DNA of 64,000 nt, taken from IMG/VR virus record IMGVR_UViG_3300034062_004313, positions 64,001-128,000 of that record. The stretch is one strand, 5' to 3'. The notes below the pieces were generated by a model. That model ran no database searches. It was not told where the DNA came from and saw only the letters and a program-made list of their open reading frames with translations. Shown here piece after piece: positions 39,988 through 48,335 of this stretch (the stretch's first letter is position 1; every line of letters starts with the position of its first letter). The position numbers were made by a program, and so were the translations under genes. Source of the stretch: a virus.

Positions 39988-41133
39988 ATGGCTTGTAGTC
40001 CTTATAATCCTTGTCACACACCAACTTGTGACACATGTAATACAGTAAATCCTTGTTATGACAATTGTGGTTGTTTAAATCCAACTACATTTGATTGTAT
40101 AACAAATTTCAAAAAAGCATATAACAATATCCCTTTAGAAATAAATGCTACAGGGCAAGATATGCTTGATAATCTTGATGAAACAGTAGCTGAAATAGAA
40201 AGTAATCTATATAAAGTAAAGGTGGATGATAGTGATACTTGTCCTGATACACTCTTAGATAAGATTACAGCAGGTAGCAATATTACAGTATCTGTAGCAG
40301 GAAGTGGATGTAATAGAAAACTTACTATAACAGCAGGGAATGGTATAACAACTGCTCCTGATATATATGCTAAAGTTTCATCTAATGACACTACATCTGA
40401 TTATCTTGGTAATAAATTTGTAGATGGTACATATGTTAAGAAATCTGTAAATAGTCCCGGTGGAAATGAAACAATTGATTTTGACATTACAATAGCTGAT
40501 TTAATCTCTACTGATAGTGGAAACCAATTAGGACAAGGAGTAGATGGTAAATTAAAAACTTTGTTCTCTGCACCTGATGGTTCTGAAACTAAAATTAACC
40601 CTGTTGCAAATTCTGGAATTACCCTAACTGGTACAGGTACTAATGGTGACCCTTATCTTATAGGAACTAATGGAGCATTATTTGCTGTTCAACCATATAC
40701 AGATGGTGTATGGAGAACATTAACCTTTAACAATGGTAGCAATGCTAATGTGACACTTAATTCTCAATCTGTTAAATATCGTATGAGATACGATGGTTCT
40801 GTAGAGTTTAAAGGAAGCTTAAATTATAGTGTAACATTCAATGTAGCAAGTACTAATAAGATAGCTATAACAGCAGCTAACATCACTACAGGAGGCTCAA
40901 CAAACCTTCCTTCAACAGCCTTTGATAGGGTTGCTAATCTAAGACATTATATGACGTTCAGTAGCCCTAATACAATAAGTGCTACACCAAAATTAACAGG
41001 TTATAATGTAAACATATTAGCTGCTGCTTTAAATAGTCCAGCACCAATTCAAATAGAATTTATGAATGACACTGCTGAAACTAAAAATATAGTAGTAACA
41101 ATGGATGGAGCAATATATCATCCTAATATTTAA
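39988..41133 (+). CDS. Cys-rich N-terminus fibre-like protein
   Basis: repeated KV...DT..D.L..K...G..I modules. Confidence 0.6.
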   Translation: MACSPYNPCHTPTCDTCNTVNPCYDNCGCLNPTTFDCITNFKKAYNNIPLEINATGQDMLDNLDETVAEIESNLYKVKVDDSDTCPDTLLDKITAGSNITVSVAGSGCNRKLTITAGNGITTAPDIYAKVSSNDTTSDYLGNKFVDGTYVKKSVNSPGGNETIDFDITIADLISTDSGNQLGQGVDGKLKTLFSAPDGSETKINPVANSGITLTGTGTNGDPYLIGTNGALFAVQPYTDGVWRTLTFNNGSNANVTLNSQSVKYRMRYDGSVEFKGSLNYSVTFNVASTNKIAITAANITTGGSTNLPSTAFDRVANLRHYMTFSSPNTISATPKLTGYNVNILAAALNSPAPIQIEFMNDTAETKNIVVTMDGAIYHPNI

Positions 41134-41183
41134 GAATTTAGAAAGAACGTAGCTTTTTTTGGTTTTTGCTGCATATGTTTTTC

Positions 41184-41206
41184 GGAGCCGTTCTCGGCTC
41201 TTTTTT
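41184..41206 (+). terminator. intrinsic terminator
   Basis: GAGCCG-TTCT-CGGCTC-T6. Confidence 0.8.
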
Positions 41207-41241
41207 CTTTTTATTAACATTTTAAATTGTAATTTTGTATT

Positions 41242-41496
41242 ATGATAATAACAGATAACATATTCTATTTAGATAATGGAGTAGAAAGACAAATAAATGT
41301 ATTTAACGAAAGTGACCCACACTATAGATGTTTTGAATCAGATGGACAGAAACAAATAATCTTTGGAAGAAGTTCATTTGTAAAAACTGAAAATGGAGAA
41401 GTAGATTTCTTCTCTTTAAGCAAAGAAGAAAAAGATAAATTCTGTAATAACACTAATTTTATAAAAACTTATAAAAAATATGATATACATAGGTAA
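41242..41496 (+). CDS. hypothetical protein
   Basis: 84-aa ORF 4 nt after TAATTTTG. Confidence 0.6.
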   Translation: MIITDNIFYLDNGVERQINVFNESDPHYRCFESDGQKQIIFGRSSFVKTENGEVDFFSLSKEEKDKFCNNTNFIKTYKKYDIHR

Positions 41497-41543
41497 AGAA
41501 TTAAGATGTTGGAAACACGTTAACAATGAATTAACACAACATA

Positions 41544-41575
41544 TTTGATTATATAAAATTATTACACTATATTAC
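41544..41575 (+). promoter_or_regulatory. probable promoter of tRNA operon 1
   Basis: TTTG-N20-TATATTAC (degenerate -7 element). Confidence 0.5.
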
Positions 41576-41584
41576 AATATAATT

Positions 41585-41665
41585 ATGAAATACGTAGTAA
41601 CACATACAACATGTCCACAGTGGTTTACACCGACAATATCGGGAGGGGCTTTGTATGTATACTAA
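41585..41665 (+). CDS. attenuator leader peptide 1 (MKYVVTHTTCPQWFTPTISGGALYVY)
   Basis: codons 6-17 are only Thr/His/Cys/Pro/Gln/Trp/Phe, the tRNAs of operon 1; 3' end pairs with the terminator arm. Confidence 0.88.
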   Translation: MKYVVTHTTCPQWFTPTISGGALYVY

Positions 41666-41687
41666 GAAATAGCTGTGTAGTAACATC

Positions 41688-41715
41688 AACCCTCTGAGAA
41701 ATCGGAGGGTTTTTT
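41688..41715 (+). terminator. attenuator terminator 1
   Basis: AACCCTCTGA-GAAA-TCGGAGGGTT plus T tract just before tRNA-Pro; 41678-97 can instead pair with 41639-64. Confidence 0.9.
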
Positions 41716-41719
41716 ATTT

Positions 41720-41813
41720 CTAGTTGTGGACGAGAGGTTTATGTCATTAGTCTTGGAAACTAATATCTGCACACAGATGGTGTGGGTCAAGGGTTCGACT
41801 CCCTTCAACTAGA
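41720..41813 (+). tRNA. tRNA-Pro(UGG) with long variable arm
   Basis: acceptor CTAGTTG/CAACTAG, A73; anticodon arm TTAGT-CTTGGAA-ACTAA; T loop TTCGACT. Confidence 0.8.
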
Positions 41814-41823
41814 CTTTTAATTT

Positions 41824-41896
41824 GCCTTACGAAGCTTTTATGGATGAAGTGTACTCTTGTAAAGTACGGAACTGGACTCGATTTCCAGCTAAGGCT
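41824..41896 (+). tRNA. tRNA-Thr(UGU)
   Basis: GCCTTA/TAAGGC acceptor; GTACT-CTTGTAA-AGTAC. Confidence 0.8.
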
Positions 41897-41902
41897 CAAA
41901 TT

Positions 41903-41975
41903 GGAGAAGAAGCTAACTTGGTAGAAGCGTTAGACTGAAAATCTAAAGGAGTTGGTCCGAAACCAACCTTCTCCG
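41903..41975 (+). tRNA. tRNA-Phe(GAA)
   Basis: GGAGAAG/CTTCTCC; TTAGA-CTGAAAA-TCTAA. Confidence 0.85.
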
Positions 41976-41977
41976 CT

Positions 41978-42052
41978 AAATACTTAATGAAACAATAAAG
42001 GAACAAAGGGGTCCGGGTAGAAATACGTTAGCGCCCATTGATTTAAGTATTT
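41978..42052 (+). ncRNA. unknown ~75-nt structured RNA within tRNA operon 1
   Basis: closing stem AAATACTTAA/TTAAGTATTT; GC-rich core with GTA-GAAA-TAC tetraloop. Confidence 0.45.
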
Positions 42053-42057
42053 TTTAT

Positions 42058-42129
42058 TCCTATGTGGTGTAATGTAACATCCACGCCTTTGAAGCGTTGA
42101 GATTGGTGGTTCAAGTCCATCTATAGGAA
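42058..42129 (+). tRNA. tRNA-Gln(UUG)
   Basis: TCCTATG/TATAGGA; ACGC-CTTTGAA-GCGT; T arm GGTGG-TTCAAGT-CCATC. Confidence 0.82.
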
Positions 42130-42131
42130 CT

Positions 42132-42206
42132 GTCTAAGTGTTCTGACTGGATTCAGATGAATGACTGTGAATTATTCAAAAAGGGTTCGAATCCCACTTA
42201 GACCCA
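42132..42206 (+). tRNA. tRNA-His(GUG)
   Basis: GTCTAAG/CTTAGAC; AATGA-CTGTGAA-TTATT; C discriminator; T-stem register imperfect. Confidence 0.78.
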
Positions 42207-42210
42207 ATAT

Positions 42211-42283
42211 ATAGGTACTCATGGCTGGCGTGATAAACAATCTCCAAAATTGTGATTTGTTGAATCGTTCTCAACTACCTATG
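42211..42283 (+). tRNA. tRNA-Trp(CCA), divergent
   Basis: ATAGGTA/TACCTAT, G73; ACAAT-CTCCAAA-ATTGT; atypical T loop ATCGTTC. Confidence 0.7.
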
Positions 42284-42339
42284 CTTTATAGGTCTATATA
42301 CCTATATTTATAGATTATAGGTTTTAAAGGCTATAATTT

Positions 42340-42415
42340 GTCCAGATACCTAATATTGATTTTGGGATAGGTCTGCAACACCTATTAAATATCGGTTTGA
42401 TTCCGATTCTGGACT
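42340..42415 (+). tRNA. tRNA-Cys(GCA)
   Basis: GTCCAGA/TCTGGAC, U73; TAGGT-CTGCAAC-ACCTA. Confidence 0.82.
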
Positions 42416-42429
42416 CTATTAAAAATAAA

Positions 42430-42461
42430 TTTTTTTATTTGAAAAAGATTTCGTATATTTG
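42430..42461 (+). promoter_or_regulatory. promoter of tRNA operon 2
   Basis: -7 element TATATTTG (42454-61) in the same TTTCGTATATTTGC context as the operon 3 promoter. Confidence 0.7.
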
Positions 42462-42486
42462 CTGTATAAATAATAAACATTCAACA

Positions 42487-42567
42487 ATGCAACTTATAAA
42501 TATGATAGTGGATAACGGTATTGGAGCAAACGAGAAGTTTGGCTTCAGGTATTCTATTGTCGTATAA
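42487..42567 (+). CDS. attenuator leader peptide 2 (MQLINMIVDNGIGANEKFGFRYSIVV)
   Basis: codons 4-17 are only Ile/Asn/Met/Val/Asp/Gly/Ala/Glu/Lys, the tRNAs of operon 2. Confidence 0.88.
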   Translation: MQLINMIVDNGIGANEKFGFRYSIVV

Positions 42568-42588
42568 TTACTTACTAACCCGATAAAG

Positions 42589-42619
42589 AATCCTGAGGCC
42601 CATCGCTTCGGGATTTTTT
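42589..42619 (+). terminator. attenuator terminator 2
   Basis: AATCCTGAGGC-CCATC-GCTTCGGGATT plus T tract; 42581-600 can instead pair with 42541-62. Confidence 0.9.
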
Positions 42620-42623
42620 GTTT

Positions 42624-42698
42624 AATCTCGTAGCAAAATGTGGCTTTGCTTCAGCCTTTTAAGCTGACTAAAAATGGGTTCGACTCCCATCGGGATTA
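42624..42698 (+). tRNA. tRNA-Lys(UUU)
   Basis: AATCTCG/CGGGATT; TCAGC-CTTTTAA-GCTGA. Confidence 0.88.
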
Positions 42699-42704
42699 CT
42701 AAAT

Positions 42705-42777
42705 GGCTCTTTAGCTCAGTGGTAGAGCTTCGTTTTTACATGACGAGAAAGCACTTGTCCGATTCAAGTAAGAGCTA
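42705..42777 (+). tRNA. tRNA-Val(UAC)
   Basis: GGCTCTT/AAGAGCT; canonical D arm; TCGTT-TTTACAT-GACGA. Confidence 0.82.
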
Positions 42778-42778
42778 C

Positions 42779-43108
42779 ATGAAATATATATTAGGAATAC
42801 TGTTCTTATTAATTATAGGAACAGCAACAAAAACAGGAATTGCAAGTTATTATCATAACAAGTTTCAAGGAAGGAAAACTGCTAGTGGTGAATTATATGA
42901 TAAACATAAATTAACAGCAGCTTCTAATCAATATAAACTTGGTGATAGTGTAAGAGTAACAAATACTAAGAATGGTAAAAGTGTAAATGTTACAGTAAAT
43001 GACCGTATGGCTAATAATGGAAGACTAATTGATTTAAGTAGAAGTGCTGCTGATAGTCTTGGTTTTATTAAGGATGGTTTAGTTGTAGTTAAAGTTAGTA
43101 TATTATAA
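42779..43108 (+). CDS. rlpA: RlpA-like double-psi beta-barrel protein (lytic transglycosylase family)
   Basis: hydrophobic N-terminus; GIASYY...GRKTASGE.YD...LTAA...VRVTN..NGKSV.V.VNDR...R.IDLS..AA..LG; start moved to ATG 42779 because the longer ORF overlaps tRNAs. Confidence 0.85.
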   Translation: MKYILGILFLLIIGTATKTGIASYYHNKFQGRKTASGELYDKHKLTAASNQYKLGDSVRVTNTKNGKSVNVTVNDRMANNGRLIDLSRSAADSLGFIKDGLVVVKVSIL

Positions 43109-43113
43109 ATATC

Positions 43114-43187
43114 TGTTTTGTAGCTCAGTGGCCTAGAGCGTGAAGCTGTTAACTTCAGGGTCGTGGGTTCGAATCCCATCAGGACAG
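43114..43187 (+). tRNA. tRNA-Asn(GUU)
   Basis: TGTTTTG/CAGGACA, G73; TGAAG-CTGTTAA-CTTCA. Confidence 0.92.
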
Positions 43188-43192
43188 CATAT

Positions 43193-43277
43193 TGTGGGAT
43201 GGTGTAATTGGTAACACGCAAGGCTCATAACCTTGAGACAGAAAATGCTAGCAAGGGTTCGAATCCCTTTCCCGCAA
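43193..43277 (+). tRNA. tRNA-Met(CAU) with extended variable region
   Basis: TGTGGGA/TCCCGCA; CAAGG-CTCATAA-CCTTG. Confidence 0.82.
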
Positions 43278-43282
43278 CACAA

Positions 43283-43355
43283 GCAGTATAGGCAGATTGG
43301 CTTATGCACCTCACTTCCAATGAGGACATGGTGGGTTCGATTCCTACATGCTGCA
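43283..43355 (+). tRNA. tRNA-Gly(UCC)
   Basis: GCAGTAT/ATGCTGC; CCTCA-CTTCCAA-TGAGG. Confidence 0.88.
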
Positions 43356-43402
43356 CAAAAATTATATTATGAAAAATTCTTTAAAAGAAGGTGAAGAGAT
43401 AT

Positions 43403-43475
43403 ACTCTCATCTTCTAGTTGGTCAGGATAACACACTTTCAATGTGTTGACACGGGTTCAAGCCCCGTTGGGAGTG
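43403..43475 (+). tRNA. tRNA-Glu(UUC)
   Basis: ACTCTCA/TGGGAGT; ACACA-CTTTCAA-TGTGT. Confidence 0.88.
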
Positions 43476-43485
43476 CTTTAAAAAT

Positions 43486-43559
43486 GGTAGATGGGTCTGC
43501 TGGATGAAGATGTCGGTCTGTCGAACCGAAGATGATGGGTTTGAATCCCATATCTACCG
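43486..43559 (+). tRNA. tRNA-Asp(GUC)
   Basis: GGTAGAT/ATCTACC, G73; TCGGT-CTGTCGA-ACCGA. Confidence 0.85.
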
Positions 43560-43564
43560 CATTA

Positions 43565-43639
43565 GGACTTGTAGCCAAGTTGGTAAAGGCCCTTGACTCA
43601 TAATCAAGAGATGCAATGGTTCGAGACCATTCAAGTCCA
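43565..43639 (+). tRNA. tRNA with CAU anticodon, probably Ile2 (lysidine); Met not excluded
   Basis: GGACTTG/CAAGTCC Ile-like acceptor; CTTGA-CTCATAA-TCAAG; leader 2 has two ATA codons. Confidence 0.75.
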
Positions 43640-43644
43640 CATAT

Positions 43645-43716
43645 AGGAATATAGTAGAAGGGTTATCACAATTGACTGATACTCAATTAATATAGGTTCG
43701 AATCCTATTGTTCCTA
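43645..43716 (+). tRNA. tRNA-Ile(GAU)
   Basis: AGGAATA/TGTTCCT; ATTGA-CTGATAC-TCAAT. Confidence 0.85.
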
Positions 43717-43721
43717 CATTT

Positions 43722-43794
43722 GGGGATAAAGCTCTAGCGGATGAGCATCTGCCTTGCACGTAGAAGGTTACGATTTCGAGTGTCGTTATCTCCA
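43722..43794 (+). tRNA. tRNA-Ala(UGC)
   Basis: GGGGATA/TATCTCC with G3:U70; TCTGC-CTTGCAC-GTAGA. Confidence 0.88.
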
Positions 43795-43818
43795 CATAGG
43801 GGTTCGGAAAATAATTAG

Positions 43819-43854
43819 CTACATCTCTTTATTAATAAGGGTTGTAGCTTTTTT
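43819..43854 (+). terminator. terminator ending tRNA operon 2
   Basis: AGCTACA.CTCTT...AAGGG.TGTAGCT plus T tract. Confidence 0.75.
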
Positions 43855-43930
43855 ATTGTCTCAAATATTGTAATAATTTGCGACATAATTTATTTTTTGT
43901 CAGGTTATAACCTTTCTTTATCTTTGTTTT

Positions 43931-44098
43931 ATGAATTGGCATATACTACCTGTAAATGATATAGAATATCATGAAGAATCTACCACTTGTAAGTGTGAAC
44001 CACAAGTAGAATTTATAGAAGGAGATATGCTAATTATACAAAACTCTTTTGATGGTAGAGAAGGAGTTGAATGGGTAAATGAAATTTTAAATAAATAA
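43931..44098 (+). CDS. 55-aa hypothetical protein (MNWHILPVNDIEYHEESTTCKCEPQ...SFDGRE...)
   Basis: translated by hand; H..H..CxC pattern; TATCTTTG element 4 nt upstream. Confidence 0.65.
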   Translation: MNWHILPVNDIEYHEESTTCKCEPQVEFIEGDMLIIQNSFDGREGVEWVNEILNK

Positions 44099-44130
44099 TT
44101 TGGAAAATTCAAAATAATTTCGTATATTTG
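44099..44130 (+). promoter_or_regulatory. promoter of tRNA operon 3
   Basis: TTTG-N20-TATATTTG, full Bacteroidota consensus. Confidence 0.8.
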
Positions 44131-44134
44131 CTTT

Positions 44135-44203
44135 ATGAAAACATTATCACTATATAGTTCCTCAAGTTATCTCTTATTAAGAGACAGGGATTGTATTGTG
44201 TAA
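44135..44203 (+). CDS. attenuator leader peptide 3 (MKTLSLYSSSSYLLLRDRDCIV)
   Basis: codons 4-15 are only Leu/Ser/Tyr, the tRNAs of operon 3. Confidence 0.88.
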   Translation: MKTLSLYSSSSYLLLRDRDCIV

Positions 44204-44231
44204 ATAGCTATAAGCTTTTAGCTCCCCTAAC

Positions 44232-44263
44232 AATCCCTTGTCTTTCCAGATGAGGGATTTTTT
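44232..44263 (+). terminator. attenuator terminator 3
   Basis: AATCCCTTGTCT-TTCC-AGATGAGGGATT plus T tract; 44230-43 can instead pair with 44182-94. Confidence 0.9.
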
Positions 44264-44266
44264 ATT

Positions 44267-44339
44267 GGCTCTATGACGTAATCGGCAACCGTCTTGGCTT
44301 TAGACCCCAAGTTTTCCAGTTCGAATCTGGATAGAGCTA
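44267..44339 (+). tRNA. tRNA-Leu(UAG) lacking a long variable arm
   Basis: GGCTCTA/TAGAGCT, A73; TTGG(C)-TTTAGAC-(C)CCAA. Confidence 0.75.
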
Positions 44340-44394
44340 CAAATTAGCAGCCCTCTATGGATAATTCTATTGACGAATAGAATATGGGCAAAAT

Positions 44395-44477
44395 ATTCCT
44401 GTGGTGAAATGGTGAGACACGGCAGACTTAAAATCTGCTACGGAGAAACGTTGCTGGTTCGAATCCAGTCAGGAATA
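44395..44477 (+). tRNA. tRNA-Leu(UAA)
   Basis: ATTCCTG/CAGGAAT; GCAGA-CTTAAAA-TCTGC; variable arm present. Confidence 0.9.
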
Positions 44478-44480
44478 CTT

Positions 44481-44565
44481 AGCAGAATGTCAGAGTGGTT
44501 TATTGTGATAGTCTTGAAAACTATTGGGTGTAAAAGCTCCTTGGGTTCGAATCCCAATTTTGCTG
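44481..44565 (+). tRNA. tRNA-Ser(UGA)
   Basis: AGCAGAA/TTTTGCT, G73; ATAGT-CTTGAAA-ACTAT; variable arm. Confidence 0.88.
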
Positions 44566-44569
44566 CAAT

Positions 44570-44658
44570 AGAAGATTGTGTGAGTGGCTTAAACAACCAG
44601 TTTGCTAAACTGGCGAGGGATTAAAACACCTCCATTGGTTCAAATCCAATATCTTCTG
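44570..44658 (+). tRNA. tRNA-Ser(GCU)
   Basis: AGAAGAT/ATCTTCT, G73; CCAGT-TTGCTAA-ACTGG; variable arm. Confidence 0.9.
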
Positions 44659-44663
44659 CATAT

Positions 44664-44756
44664 TGTGTTGTAACGGCAGTAGACTGTAAATCTACTCTGC
44701 ATAACAAATTGTCGTACTGGTCTCGCAGTAAGAAGGTTCGAATCCTTTCAACACAA
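44664..44756 (+). tRNA. tRNA-Tyr(GUA) without a D arm, with enlarged variable region
   Basis: TGTGTTG/CAACACA, A73; GTAGA-CTGTAAA-TCTAC; canonical T arm; only 8 nt between acceptor and anticodon stems. Confidence 0.7.
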
Positions 44757-44782
44757 CATTAACTTATTATTAACTATAGACA

Positions 44783-44814
44783 TTTGACTATATAAAGTAA
44801 ATAGTCTATTTTTG
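44783..44814 (+). promoter_or_regulatory. Bacteroidota sigma promoter for a small RNA
   Basis: TTTG-N20-TATTTTTG with a GACTAT/ATAGTC inverted repeat. Confidence 0.7.
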
Positions 44815-44818
44815 TATT

Positions 44819-44956
44819 GTACAAATTCCCAACCGTCATAGGAGATTTGTATTTAATTAACAATAACTATATATTCGATTGATGTAACTTTGTTCTTAGG
44901 AACGCAACTTGACGGTTGGGACCCCTTGTACTTAATTGTATGAGGGGATTTTTTTT
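44819..44956 (+). ncRNA. candidate ~140-nt small RNA with its own promoter and terminator
   Basis: 12-bp stem TCCCAACCGTCA (44827-38) / TGACGGTTGGGA (44910-21); terminator CCCCTTGTAC...GTATGAGGGG-A-T8. Confidence 0.6.
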
Positions 44957-45054
44957 GCAGACATCCGAGGTTTTTCTTTCCTTCTTTTACGTCCTCCACA
45001 AAAATAAAAGAGTGTCATTAAGATAGTATAGTATATTACACTTGGTATATTATA

Positions 45055-45290
45055 TGATAGGATGTAGAAAAATCAGCAATGTCTAAGGTGACAACTGGAC
45101 CTGAACGAAATTATCAGCAAAAACTACATTCCTCCGTGAAAAATAAAATCATCTTATAGCTGATAATTATTTGTAGATGATTGGCAGGACATGGGAATCT
45201 TAGGTTGACAATATGTTTATAGGAGTATGTGTTAACTATAAATACATTATCCCAACAGGGGAAGACCTTGTTCAGGATAGACCCCCTTAT
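45055..45290 (+). ncRNA. candidate multi-stem structured RNA
   Basis: no credible ORF; stems 45109-18/45159-68, 45100-06/45270-76, 45147-54/45175-82, 45060-67/45124-32. Confidence 0.4.
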
Positions 45291-45316
45291 GTAAATTAAC
45301 AATAAAATGTAAAACT

Positions 45317-45622
45317 ATGAAAAACCACAAAATGACATCATATCAATTCATGATGTTAATGCAAGAATTACCAAATCCAATGTATTATGCTAGAAATGGA
45401 GCTAATGTAGGATTTAGAGTAAAAGTAGGATATTTAAAGAAGTCCATTGATAATACTCCTACAATATTAATAAATCCTAATTCTCAACCTATGAAGATGG
45501 CAGAAGTTGAACAGGTAGAATTTGAATTAGTTCCGAACAATACTATTTGGTATTGGCAACCTGTAGAACCAATTACTATAATAACATTAGATAAGAAAGA
45601 GTACATTAAAAATTGGGAATAA
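45317..45622 (+). CDS. hypothetical protein
   Basis: 101-aa ORF. Confidence 0.65.
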   Translation: MKNHKMTSYQFMMLMQELPNPMYYARNGANVGFRVKVGYLKKSIDNTPTILINPNSQPMKMAEVEQVEFELVPNNTIWYWQPVEPITIITLDKKEYIKNWE

Positions 45623-45930
45623 TGAATATAATAAAATGGTATAAAAGAGTATTTAGAATTCTTACTATAGAAGAATGTAAAGAATTAGGATTAGTACATT
45701 CTCATAATATATATGGTGATAGTATTAATCATTTAAATTGTAGAAGTATTTGGAAAGATGAAAAGGATAGAACATATAGGTGTGAAAGTTTAATACCTAC
45801 TATAGGAGTACTAGATTTATGGATTTTAAAAATGAAAAATCAAGATAAAGTACAACCAATAACTCAAGAAGAATATAATAAAATAAGAGATGAAGAATTT
45901 GAAAGGCTCAAGACTTTATATTCGCCTTAA
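45613..45930 (+). CDS. hypothetical protein
   Basis: NIYGD.INHLNCRSIW motif. Confidence 0.65.
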   Translation: MGIMNIIKWYKRVFRILTIEECKELGLVHSHNIYGDSINHLNCRSIWKDEKDRTYRCESLIPTIGVLDLWILKMKNQDKVQPITQEEYNKIRDEEFERLKTLYSP

Positions 45931-45967
45931 CAAATAATAGTGTAATTTTGGCTTCTAAATAAAAATC

Positions 45968-46288
45968 ATGAAAGTATTAACAGAAGGACATTATTATGAA
46001 CTAGAACATTTTGAAAAAGATGAATCGGGTAGTTCAGAAAGTTTACAATTTATCGAAAAGGTTCCAAAAGGTGAAGGGAAAGTACAAGATTTAGTAACAG
46101 TAAATAATGGAACTACAAATGAAGAAGTTCTTAAAGTTCTAATAAATAGAATGAACTATTTACAAGCAAAATTTCCATGTAGAGAAAATGCTATTGTAAT
46201 TACAAAACTTGAAGAAAGTCTAATGTGGTTAGAAAAAAGAACTGTTGATAGAATAGCTAGAAATGTAGAAGGTAAACAATTAAAATAA
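45968..46288 (+). CDS. Tad1-like anti-defence sponge protein
   Basis: NGTTNEEVL.VLI.R...LQ..FPCRENA..ITKLEE.LMWL..R..DR..RNVEG resembles the recalled Tad1 C-terminal signature. Confidence 0.7.
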   Translation: MKVLTEGHYYELEHFEKDESGSSESLQFIEKVPKGEGKVQDLVTVNNGTTNEEVLKVLINRMNYLQAKFPCRENAIVITKLEESLMWLEKRTVDRIARNVEGKQLK

Positions 46289-46296
46289 AATAAACT

Positions 46297-46512
46297 ATGA
46301 AAAAACAATTATTTACGTATGCTGTATTATTCCATCAGCATGAAGAGAAAGAGGGAAAATTGGAATACAAAGAAACACTTATTCTTGTAGAACCAAAAGT
46401 GATTTTAGCAAAGAATAGTAATGAAGTAGCATTCAAAGCTACAAGAGACGTACCAGAACAATATGCAGGATTTTCAGAAAATGTAGAAATTATAGTACGC
46501 CCTTTTAAATAG
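46297..46512 (+). CDS. small hypothetical protein ending IIVRPFK
   Basis: 71-aa ORF; possible frameshift extension. Confidence 0.7.
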   Translation: MKKQLFTYAVLFHQHEEKEGKLEYKETLILVEPKVILAKNSNEVAFKATRDVPEQYAGFSENVEIIVRPFK

Positions 46513-46711
46513 CTCCCCCTTAATGTGGGATAGTGGGAGCAAAGGAGTATGGGAACAATTAGTAGACCCACCTAAATATAAAAGTACTTTCCAAAATTAT
46601 ATGGGTACAACTACAAATTTAGTAGGACAAGCAATAAACACTTTGACAACAGGAACATCAATATCATATAACATGGCAGATGCAATGTCATTCACAAATT
46701 AAAATCAAATT

Positions 46712-46876
46712 ATGAAAACACTAACAAATCTATTTACAAGCAACCCATCTTACATGAAATGGGGTAATGAAAGAATTGCAAAAAGAACAGGGCTGAAACC
46801 AAAAACAGTAGAGAAATTCAAAAAGAATCCCTTGTATAAGATAATGAAAACCCAATATCTTAACGAGATTAATTAG
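46712..46876 (+). CDS. 54-aa basic HTH-like protein (MKTLTNLFTSNPSYMKWGNERIAKRTG...)
   Basis: translated by hand; resembles the N-terminus of 47019..48335 (NP..L..G..K..LA.RLG). Confidence 0.55.
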   Translation: MKTLTNLFTSNPSYMKWGNERIAKRTGLKPKTVEKFKKNPLYKIMKTQYLNEIN

Positions 46877-46926
46877 GAAATGTCGCAAAAAAGGCGTATA
46901 TTGTTATGATATGCGCTTTTTTATTT

Positions 46927-46998
46927 GGCTCCTTAGTTAAATGGATATAACCGCAGAATTCTAATCTGCATTTGGGAGTTCGATTCTCTCAGGGGCTA
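46927..46998 (+). tRNA. tRNA-Arg(UCU)
   Basis: GGCTCCT/AGGGGCT; GCAGA-ATTCTAA-TCTGC. Confidence 0.88.
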
Positions 46999-47018
46999 CG
47001 AAATCTTAAAAATAAATT

Positions 47019-48335
47019 ATGATTATAACACAAACAATGCAAAAGTTTATTGACAATCCGAAGATGTTAGAGAGTGGATATTGCTCAAAAGCAAAATTAG
47101 CTCAAAGACTTGGAACAACAATAGACGATATTACAGAATCAAGGTTTAAAGTGAAACAAATGATGTCTTCATTAGACCATGCTCAAGAGTTCTTTAAAGA
47201 ATTAAAATCAGAAATTGTTAATGAACATACTACAAGAGTAGATAATGAAAAGGGTACTATAACATCGGATGTAGAAACTACATTTGAACCCAAGAATGAT
47301 ATTGAATTAGCTGAATTACATAAGATTGATTTAACAAAATACAAAATAAGTACATATTGGTCTAAACTAAAGAGCAATGGTAAATTCACTTCATCTGTAT
47401 TAGCTACATTAAGAAATATTGATAAGGATATTCCTAAACAAAAAGAATCATTAATAGAAGAAATAGATGAATATTTTGGTAGTAAAAAAGCTATTGAAAA
47501 TTATAGATTCTTCACAAGAGAAATTGATAAGGATAGAAAAACTGCTAAAAATACAGATGGTCAACTATTAGAAATATCCATTCCTGATTTACACATTGGT
47601 AAAATGTCTCATAGAGAAGAAACAGGGGAAGATTATGATTTAAAAATTGCATCTGCAAGATATAAGAATGCTATAACTCAACTATTAAAAACAGCCAATT
47701 TAGATAATGTATCTGATATATTACTACCCATTGGTAATGACTTGTTCAATGTAGATAATCAGTTCTCAACTACTACAGGTGGTACACCACAGGATTGTGA
47801 TAGTAGGTTCCACAAGATGGTAGGAGCAGCAAAAGAACTCCTTATAAATACAATAACAGGGTTAAGTGCATTTGCAAGAGTACATGTTCTTATAGTACCA
47901 GGCAATCATGATGAAGTTACAACATTTATGTTAGGTGAAATATTAGAAGCATGGTTTCATAATGATAGTAACATAACTGTAAATAATACAGCAAAACTTA
48001 GAAAATACTTCCAATTTGGAAAGAATTCTTTCCTTTATACTCATGGAGACAAAGAAAAACATGGGGATTTAGGATTGATATTTGCTACAGAAGAACCTAG
48101 ACTTTGGGCTGATACTAAATACAGATTTGTAAAACTTGGTCATCTTCACAAGCAAAAGAAAATAGAATATATAACAACAGACACACTTCAAGGGTTCCAA
48201 ATAGAAATACTTCCATCACTAAGTTCTGCTGATAAGTGGCATTATGGAAAAGGTTTCTTAGGAGCAAAGCAAGCAAAAGCCTATCTCTATGATAAAGAAC
48301 TTGGGGAAATTGCACAGTATACACACACTGTTTAA
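47019..48335 (+). CDS. calcineurin-like metallophosphoesterase with N-terminal extension
   Basis: PDLH, GND, PGNHD, THGD, GHLH motifs. Confidence 0.85.
   Translation: MIITQTMQKFIDNPKMLESGYCSKAKLAQRLGTTIDDITESRFKVKQMMSSLDHAQEFFKELKSEIVNEHTTRVDNEKGTITSDVETTFEPKNDIELAELHKIDLTKYKISTYWSKLKSNGKFTSSVLATLRNIDKDIPKQKESLIEEIDEYFGSKKAIENYRFFTREIDKDRKTAKNTDGQLLEISIPDLHIGKMSHREETGEDYDLKIASARYKNAITQLLKTANLDNVSDILLPIGNDLFNVDNQFSTTTGGTPQDCDSRFHKMVGAAKELLINTITGLSAFARVHVLIVPGNHDEVTTFMLGEILEAWFHNDSNITVNNTAKLRKYFQFGKNSFLYTHGDKEKHGDLGLIFATEEPRLWADTKYRFVKLGHLHKQKKIEYITTDTLQGFQIEILPSLSSADKWHYGKGFLGAKQAKAYLYDKELGEIAQYTHTV

Follow-up and report, generated by a model that had tools for sequence, protein, structure and literature searches.

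A probable leader-peptide attenuator in front of the first tRNA operon of a crAss-like phage

We find a 26-codon open reading frame (ORF), followed closely by an intrinsic terminator, that probably serves (probability about 0.7, judged from sequence) as a ribosome-mediated leader-peptide transcription attenuator gating the first of three tRNA operons in a phage genome. The window analysed here is a stretch of 64,000 nucleotides, bases 64001–128000 of a virus record of 155,874 bp, rated complete by CheckV. Genes flanking the tRNA array, like their homologues in related contigs, carry crAss ring-protein domains; by these domains the phage, of ~156 kb, is crAss-like, and its host is a probable member of the Bacteroidota. 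All its tRNA genes lie on the + strand, between 41.7 and 47 kb of the window, and form three operons, the first of which (block 1) holds seven genes. The elements upstream of block 1 are as follows.

41184–41210, + strand: terminator of the preceding structural-gene operon, a 7-pair stem plus T run downstream of the gene at 39988–41133
41544–41575, + strand: putative Bacteroidota-type promoter, with TTTG at 41544–41547, a 20-nt spacer and the −7 box TATATTAC at 41568–41575
41585–41665, + strand: leader ORF of 26 codons plus stop (ATG at 41585, stop at 41663–41665), a predicted translation
41595–41664, + strand: protector domain in the fold of the 135-nt leader (minimum free energy (MFE) −34.5 kcal/mol, z −2.65)
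41600–41635, + strand: sensor run, codons 6–17, read from the sequence as THTTCPQWFTPT
41642–41662, + strand: candidate 5′ strand of the antiterminator (region 2), from the fold of 41636–41699 (−15.3 kcal/mol)
41688–41719, + strand: intrinsic terminator, with 5′ arm 41688–41697, loop GAAA, 3′ arm 41702–41711 and a T tract to 41719

Since the upstream structural operon has a terminator of its own, the leader unit can be treated as a separate transcription unit; in the two closest relatives (contigs L022 and L024) the structural gene upstream of the leader likewise ends in its own terminator. Between the structural gene and leader 1 the window holds an 84-codon ORF (41242–41496) without a PHROG match; L022 and L024 lack it, and their leader lies directly 3′ of the structural gene's terminator. 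The arrangement of TTTG, 20 nt and TATATTAC is close to the Bacteroidota −33/−7 promoter pattern; the same stretch (41544–41575) was also scored as a sigma-70-like site (TTGATT, 17 nt, TATATT). From the −7 box to the leader ATG there are 9 nt in the window. The box of the relatives reads TAnnTTTG with the ATG 4 nt downstream, a gap which suggests that the leader mRNA is leaderless or nearly so, and transcription would then start a few bases 5′ of the ATG at 41585.

The sensor run comprises twelve codons in succession for Thr, His, Cys, Pro, Gln, Trp and Phe only, all readable by the seven downstream anticodons with ordinary wobble. Its letters and coordinates are those given by the original prediction, which had also pointed to the single codons for Cys, Trp and His, and these are present in the sequence. 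These seven account for 22.6% of the residues in the phage's proteins, and an in-set run of 12 in a 25-codon ORF of the phage's composition has P about 2.5e-7. Elsewhere in the window the longest such run is 8 among 34 long ORFs and 6 among 420 short ORFs (six frames); for this measure the leader ORF at 41585–41665 is the best of the 420 short ORFs. The prediction had laid weight on all five Thr codons being ACA, the exact partner of a UGU anticodon. The codons are indeed ACA throughout, and ACA accounts for 52% of Thr codons in the phage, so that five of five alone gives P = 0.037; we therefore set aside exact codon–anticodon matching as a main argument. The phage L072, which has Thr(GGU) and uses ACC or ACT in three of its four Thr codons, was dropped as a single anecdote. 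Leader peptides found no match in Pfam or NCBIfam at E up to 1, and in an Rfam scan of 41000–47500, also at E up to 1, tRNA was the only family matched; the leader falls outside the curated leader families (Rfam Thr, His, Leu, Trp and Phe leaders; Pfam/NCBIfam leader peptides).

Downstream of the terminator lie the genes of block 1.

41720–41814, + strand: tRNA-Pro(UGG), 95 nt with a long extra arm (default ARAGORN; Rfam 52.9 bits)
41824–41897, + strand: tRNA-Thr(UGU), atypical (ARAGORN at 85% thresholds only)
41903–41976, + strand: tRNA-Phe(GAA) (default ARAGORN and Rfam)
42058–42130, + strand: tRNA-Gln(UUG) (default ARAGORN and Rfam)
42132–42205, + strand: tRNA-His(GUG), atypical (Rfam 27.5 bits against a cut-off of 29; ARAGORN at 85% thresholds)
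about 42207–42284, + strand: tRNA-Trp(CCA), atypical (ARAGORN at 70% thresholds or in mitochondrial mode only)
42340–42416, + strand: tRNA-Cys(GCA), the last gene of block 1 (default ARAGORN and Rfam)

Seven matching tRNAs had been predicted here. Default calls bear this out for Pro, Phe, Gln and Cys; the Thr, His and Trp genes are atypical and sub-threshold for default ARAGORN and Rfam, with weak or aberrant D arms. The His gene (42132–42205) folds as a cloverleaf, the Trp gene is kept in L022 and L024, where changes in its anticodon stem compensate one another, and block 1 of the relatives has Thr (anticodon UGU), His and Trp genes with normal scores. Block 1 would then encode seven tRNAs whose amino acids are precisely those of the sensor, with the tRNAs for Thr, His and Trp standing as atypical predictions. 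The extra arm of tRNA-Pro(UGG) has 9 pairs and resembles that of a class II tRNA; the homologues in L022 and L024 are 74–76 nt long. The T tract of the terminator ends one base 5′ of tRNA-Pro (41720), which leaves no space for a promoter, and a search inside block 1 for the strict-consensus promoter found none. Because the T tract touches tRNA-Pro and the block has no strict-consensus promoter within it, its tRNAs would have to be reached by read-through of the terminator.

Beyond tRNA-Cys(GCA) a second leader unit begins at 42487. This unit and a third repeat the plan of the first (promoter, mini-ORF in the amino acids of its block, terminator, tRNA block) with different amino-acid sets.

42487–42567, + strand: sister leader 2, longest in-set run 14 against its own block
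44135–44203, + strand: sister leader 3, longest in-set run 13 against its own block

For leader 1 the in-set run is 12 residues against block 1, 3 against block 2 and 2 against block 3. Across the three leaders the runs are 12, 14 and 13 against the own block and 1–3 against the others, and the three amino-acid sets together make up all 20 amino acids. Some Thr-His-Thr and Cys codons of the sensor double as strands of the protector helix, so RNA structure contributes to its composition.

Several other elements lie in or beside the arrays. Within tRNA block 2 is an RlpA-like lipoprotein gene (window 42779–43108; PHROG 7930, E = 1.7e-24), which together with the adjoining tRNA-Asn has 70% DNA identity to a stretch of Leptolyngbya phage Lbo-JY46. 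After tRNA-Tyr, window 44783–44955 holds a TTTG/TAnnTTTG consensus promoter (44783–44814) and a strong terminator (44922–44947 plus T run), separated by ~110 nt with no ATG ORF; this stretch may encode a small RNA. In two relatives (L040 8417–8975; L048 8388–8945) the unit-1 terminator is separated from tRNA-Pro by an inserted HNH endonuclease gene, which has a promoter of its own and adjoins an apparent truncated 5′ copy of a tRNA. An array tRNA of L045 (12367–12439) has the anticodon CUA, that of an amber suppressor, and is labelled Pyl by ARAGORN.

Starting from the downstream exonuclease and the flanking 381-aa protein, we traced homologues to contigs from NCBI, Logan, IMG/VR and JGI or ENA metagenomes, and these contigs are the relatives compared here. 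L022, L024, L040–L050 and L055–L073 contain homologous units, with array order and three-unit plan as in the window. An ORF of 25–31 codons is kept at the same position in 16 distinct relatives. Among 16 distinct unit-1 leaders, all from uncultured crAss-like phages, 198 of 224 codons at positions 4–17 (88%) fall in the set of the phage's own block 1, against 36% in the leader tail and an expectation of about 25%. Residue order is unlike between the window's clade and other clades; the amino-acid set is kept. Contigs that have the flanking gene and lack the tRNAs contained no such leader ORF. A search of IMG/VR with the back-translated sensor gave no match, and flanking proteins searched singly gave no relative. 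As comparison sets we rejected IMG/VR exonuclease relatives at 32–37% identity, which carry no arrays, and several closer exonuclease contigs, which end before the array or lack one; the terminator pattern, used as a search query, matched unrelated terminators only. The flanking 381-aa protein was found in no cultured phage, and the cultured crAss-like phage crAss001 has a tRNA array with no leader/terminator units. In several relatives a short ORF that encodes a Gly/Cys motif (GGCGCGGKK-like) and has a promoter of its own sits just 5′ of leader 1, and in L047 this motif forms the C-terminus of leader 2; the loci are L040 8166–8222, L048 8115–8159, L046 8082–8159 and L047 9911–10018.

Comparison of these phages suggests that leader changes follow the tRNA set in part. 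Most relatives have tRNA-Arg(ACG) as an eighth block-1 gene, and an Arg codon is part of the sensor in 10 of the 14 phages with this gene (CGY in nine of the ten, CGA in L058, to which L055 is identical here), in 0 of 2 phages without it (the window and L072) and in 0 of 3 that have tRNA-Cys alone. The exceptions, with tRNA-Arg(ACG) and no matching sensor codon, are L024, L046, L048 and L071. For 10/14 against 0/5 the Fisher P is about 0.01 with relatedness ignored, a result that is suggestive only, because the phages are related and the counts not independent. The three Cys-only phages have kept five Cys codons and lost the Thr, His, Trp and Phe codons.

The terminator is a strong one, of 10 pairs at 41688–41711 followed by TTTTTTATTT (T6AT3), at −14 to −16 kcal/mol. 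Folded without a ribosome, the 135-nt leader has an MFE structure of protector domain plus terminator, in which 41595–41599, 41602–41609, 41613–41616 and 41630–41633 pair with 41639–41642, 41646–41649, 41651–41658 and 41660–41664. These pairings of the sensor codons would tie up the antiterminator strand as long as no ribosome is on the RNA. A protector-like helix of ACACAUACA with UGUAUGU is part of the MFE structure of most relatives. The alternative pairing proposed at the outset, of 41639–41664 with 41678–41697, is seen when 41636–41699 is folded, with RNAfold placing the outer pairs slightly differently: a core of GGAGGG (41642–41647) with CCCUCU (41690–41695), flanked by 41652–41654 with 41683–41685 and by 41658–41662 with 41675–41679. 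Measured against shuffles, this antiterminator scores z = −0.86 and −1.06, no better than shuffled sequence, and the window and its two closest relatives give −1.06, −0.30 and −1.24; the core helix is retained in their consensus fold. Modelling also suggests that the 5′ arm tends to be paired in the shortened transcript even without a ribosome. More widely, terminator arms vary among the phages, and a strand in the 3′ part of each ORF complements the 5′ arm of its own terminator. Because a MAFFT alignment of twelve units was out of structural register, we replaced column-wise pair counts with alignment-free duplex tests, in which cognate duplexes averaged −15.35 kcal/mol and non-cognate ones −11.35 kcal/mol (permutation p = 5e-5). 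In tests against dinucleotide shuffles, z lies between −2.1 and −7.2 for the antiterminators of nine relatives. The window's own antiterminator is thus a candidate supported by position and homology, not by its own statistics.

We modelled the ribosome as a mask reaching from 15 nt before to 12 nt after the A-site codon, an assumed footprint. Under this mask the antiterminator forms while the A site is on any of codons 2–15 and is blocked from codon 17. The end of the sensor run coincides with this codon-17 limit of the modelled permissive window, and in 11 relatives the in-set run likewise stops where the modelled permissive window stops. A ribosome at the stop codon just leaves GGAGGG uncovered in the footprint model. 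The modelled geometry is that of a leader-peptide attenuator, in which a stall frees the antiterminator strand and advance covers it.

The ORF, its codon/tRNA match, the terminator and their conservation, together with co-variation with the tRNA set in part, are the observations on which the following scheme builds. The host-type promoter would start a transcript a few bases before the ATG at 41585, and a ribosome would be on the 26-codon ORF while RNA polymerase nears the terminator (41688–41719). Were the sensor codons (41600–41635) read fast, the ribosome would advance and cover 41639–41664, the terminator hairpin would form, and transcription would stop at ~41715, before tRNA-Pro. Slow reading of any sensor codon, its tRNA being scarce, uncharged or damaged, would stall the ribosome upstream, freeing strand 41642–41662 to pair with the terminator 5′ arm and letting polymerase continue into the seven tRNA genes. 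Within this scheme we infer the transcription start, ORF translation, this phage's antiterminator, transcription–translation coupling and the response itself; to our knowledge, such coupling has not been established in Bacteroidota. The leader has the sequence-level features expected of an attenuator, with the antiterminator as a candidate, in a conserved unit some of whose changes track the tRNA set, which supports the reading put forward by the original prediction.

Because the products are tRNAs that read the sensor codons, the circuit would be a negative feedback on tRNA supply, and block-1 tRNAs would probably be made only when ribosomes read the sensor codons slowly. We put at a little better than even the broader proposal that phages use such demand-driven feedback, with a composite leader peptide listing the decoding repertoire of each operon. 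Each tRNA block would then be transcribed only when ribosomes slow on its codons, as might happen if host tRNAs run short, are broken down in the course of infection or are cleaved by defence nucleases that target tRNA.

The same attenuator might instead report general amino-acid starvation, through uncharged tRNA, and not tRNA amount, tying tRNA transcription to the host's nutritional state rather than to supply feedback. Its anatomy would be identical, a stalled ribosome does not distinguish a missing from an uncharged tRNA, and the response of classical attenuators to tRNA charging (PMC1183508) counts for this reading; amino-acid starvation, however, is not relieved by more tRNA. Product feedback is the better fit both to the way the three leaders divide the 20 amino acids exactly by gene content and to the leader changes that follow tRNA gain and loss, and we consider a starvation sensor unlikely. 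A translated ORF that senses nothing is less likely again. Here the ORF would shield the RNA from Rho or nucleases, or the hairpin would be a 5′ processing signal of tRNA-Pro, with the tRNAs constitutive through partial read-through. The weak antiterminator of the window speaks for this, as does the hairpin's place in what becomes the tRNA-Pro 5′ leader, where its removal by RNase P is needed; but a generic shielding ORF has no reason to use its block's own amino acids or to change with block content, and there are relatives with strong, co-varying antiterminators.

A poorer prospect still is that the ORF codes for a functional micro-protein, such as a metal-binding peptide rich in Cys, and that the terminator simply closes this small gene. 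Leader peptides of L040–L048 are fairly conserved, with 4–6 Cys and some CxxC spacing, and the Cys-only phages retain CxxC...CxxC. Against this, Cys spacing varies among the phages and Pfam and NCBIfam give no matches; the window, L022 and L024 have one Cys and another residue order, yet keep the amino-acid set, and several Cys codons complement the Thr-His-Thr codons in the protector helix. Such a peptide would also leave unexplained a terminator abutting the first tRNA and the absence of the ORF where the tRNAs are absent. Finally, AT-rich DNA has many short ORFs (420 in the window), so one might lie by chance beside an ordinary terminator; the run probability of about 2.5e-7 and the 16 distinct conserved leaders with 88% in-set sensor codons make this chance negligible, and we regard coincidence as refuted by the comparative data.

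If attenuation by the leader peptide is correct, the virus measures decoding speed codon class by codon class, a single attenuation sensor integrates at least seven amino acids, and phages produce their tRNAs on demand. Phages may carry tRNAs for codon compensation or to replace host tRNAs lost to degradation or defence nucleases (PMC10264068, PMC11555353), and on-demand synthesis would bear directly on which of these applies. At about 135 nt the design is compact, and it could be used as a portable sensor of decoding capacity.

tRNA genes are usually regarded as controlled at promoters and by processing, and we know of no case of a leader peptide gating tRNA transcription. Full-text literature searches returned no paper in which tRNA genes, whether of phages or of anything else, are controlled by a leader peptide or attenuator, and a survey of bacterial attenuators (PMC2965389) does not mention tRNA genes. 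T-box riboswitches (RF00230) likewise use a terminator/antiterminator choice to read tRNA status upstream of translation-related genes; they bind one uncharged tRNA directly, without translation, by a specifier loop and T-box motif, whereas the phage element has an in-frame ORF with start and stop codons, and the RF00230 covariance model found no match in 41000–47500. In E. coli the pheST leader attenuator places a tRNA synthetase operon under leader-peptide control. It too governs a component of the decoding machinery, but is a cellular element with a protein-coding operon and a single amino acid. With the enterobacterial attenuators (thrL: Thr, Ile; ilvL: Ile, Val, Leu; trpL, hisL, pheL) the phage unit shares a control-codon ORF, a terminator ahead of the first gene and a control-codon protector helix, and its candidate antiterminator would give the terminator 5′ arm an alternative partner as in those systems; there, as in the proposed phage circuit, the product relieves the stall in negative feedback. 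It differs from them in an ORF that is nearly leaderless, in a probable Bacteroidota host and without a curated leader-family match, and in sensing seven amino acids together, mostly by one to three codons each. Genes regulated by this attenuator class encode amino-acid biosynthesis enzymes or aminoacyl-tRNA synthetases, and neither is found here: in place of biosynthetic enzymes there are seven tRNA genes. The mechanism, ribosome-mediated attenuation, would thus be a known one, and tRNA genes as its regulated product would be new.
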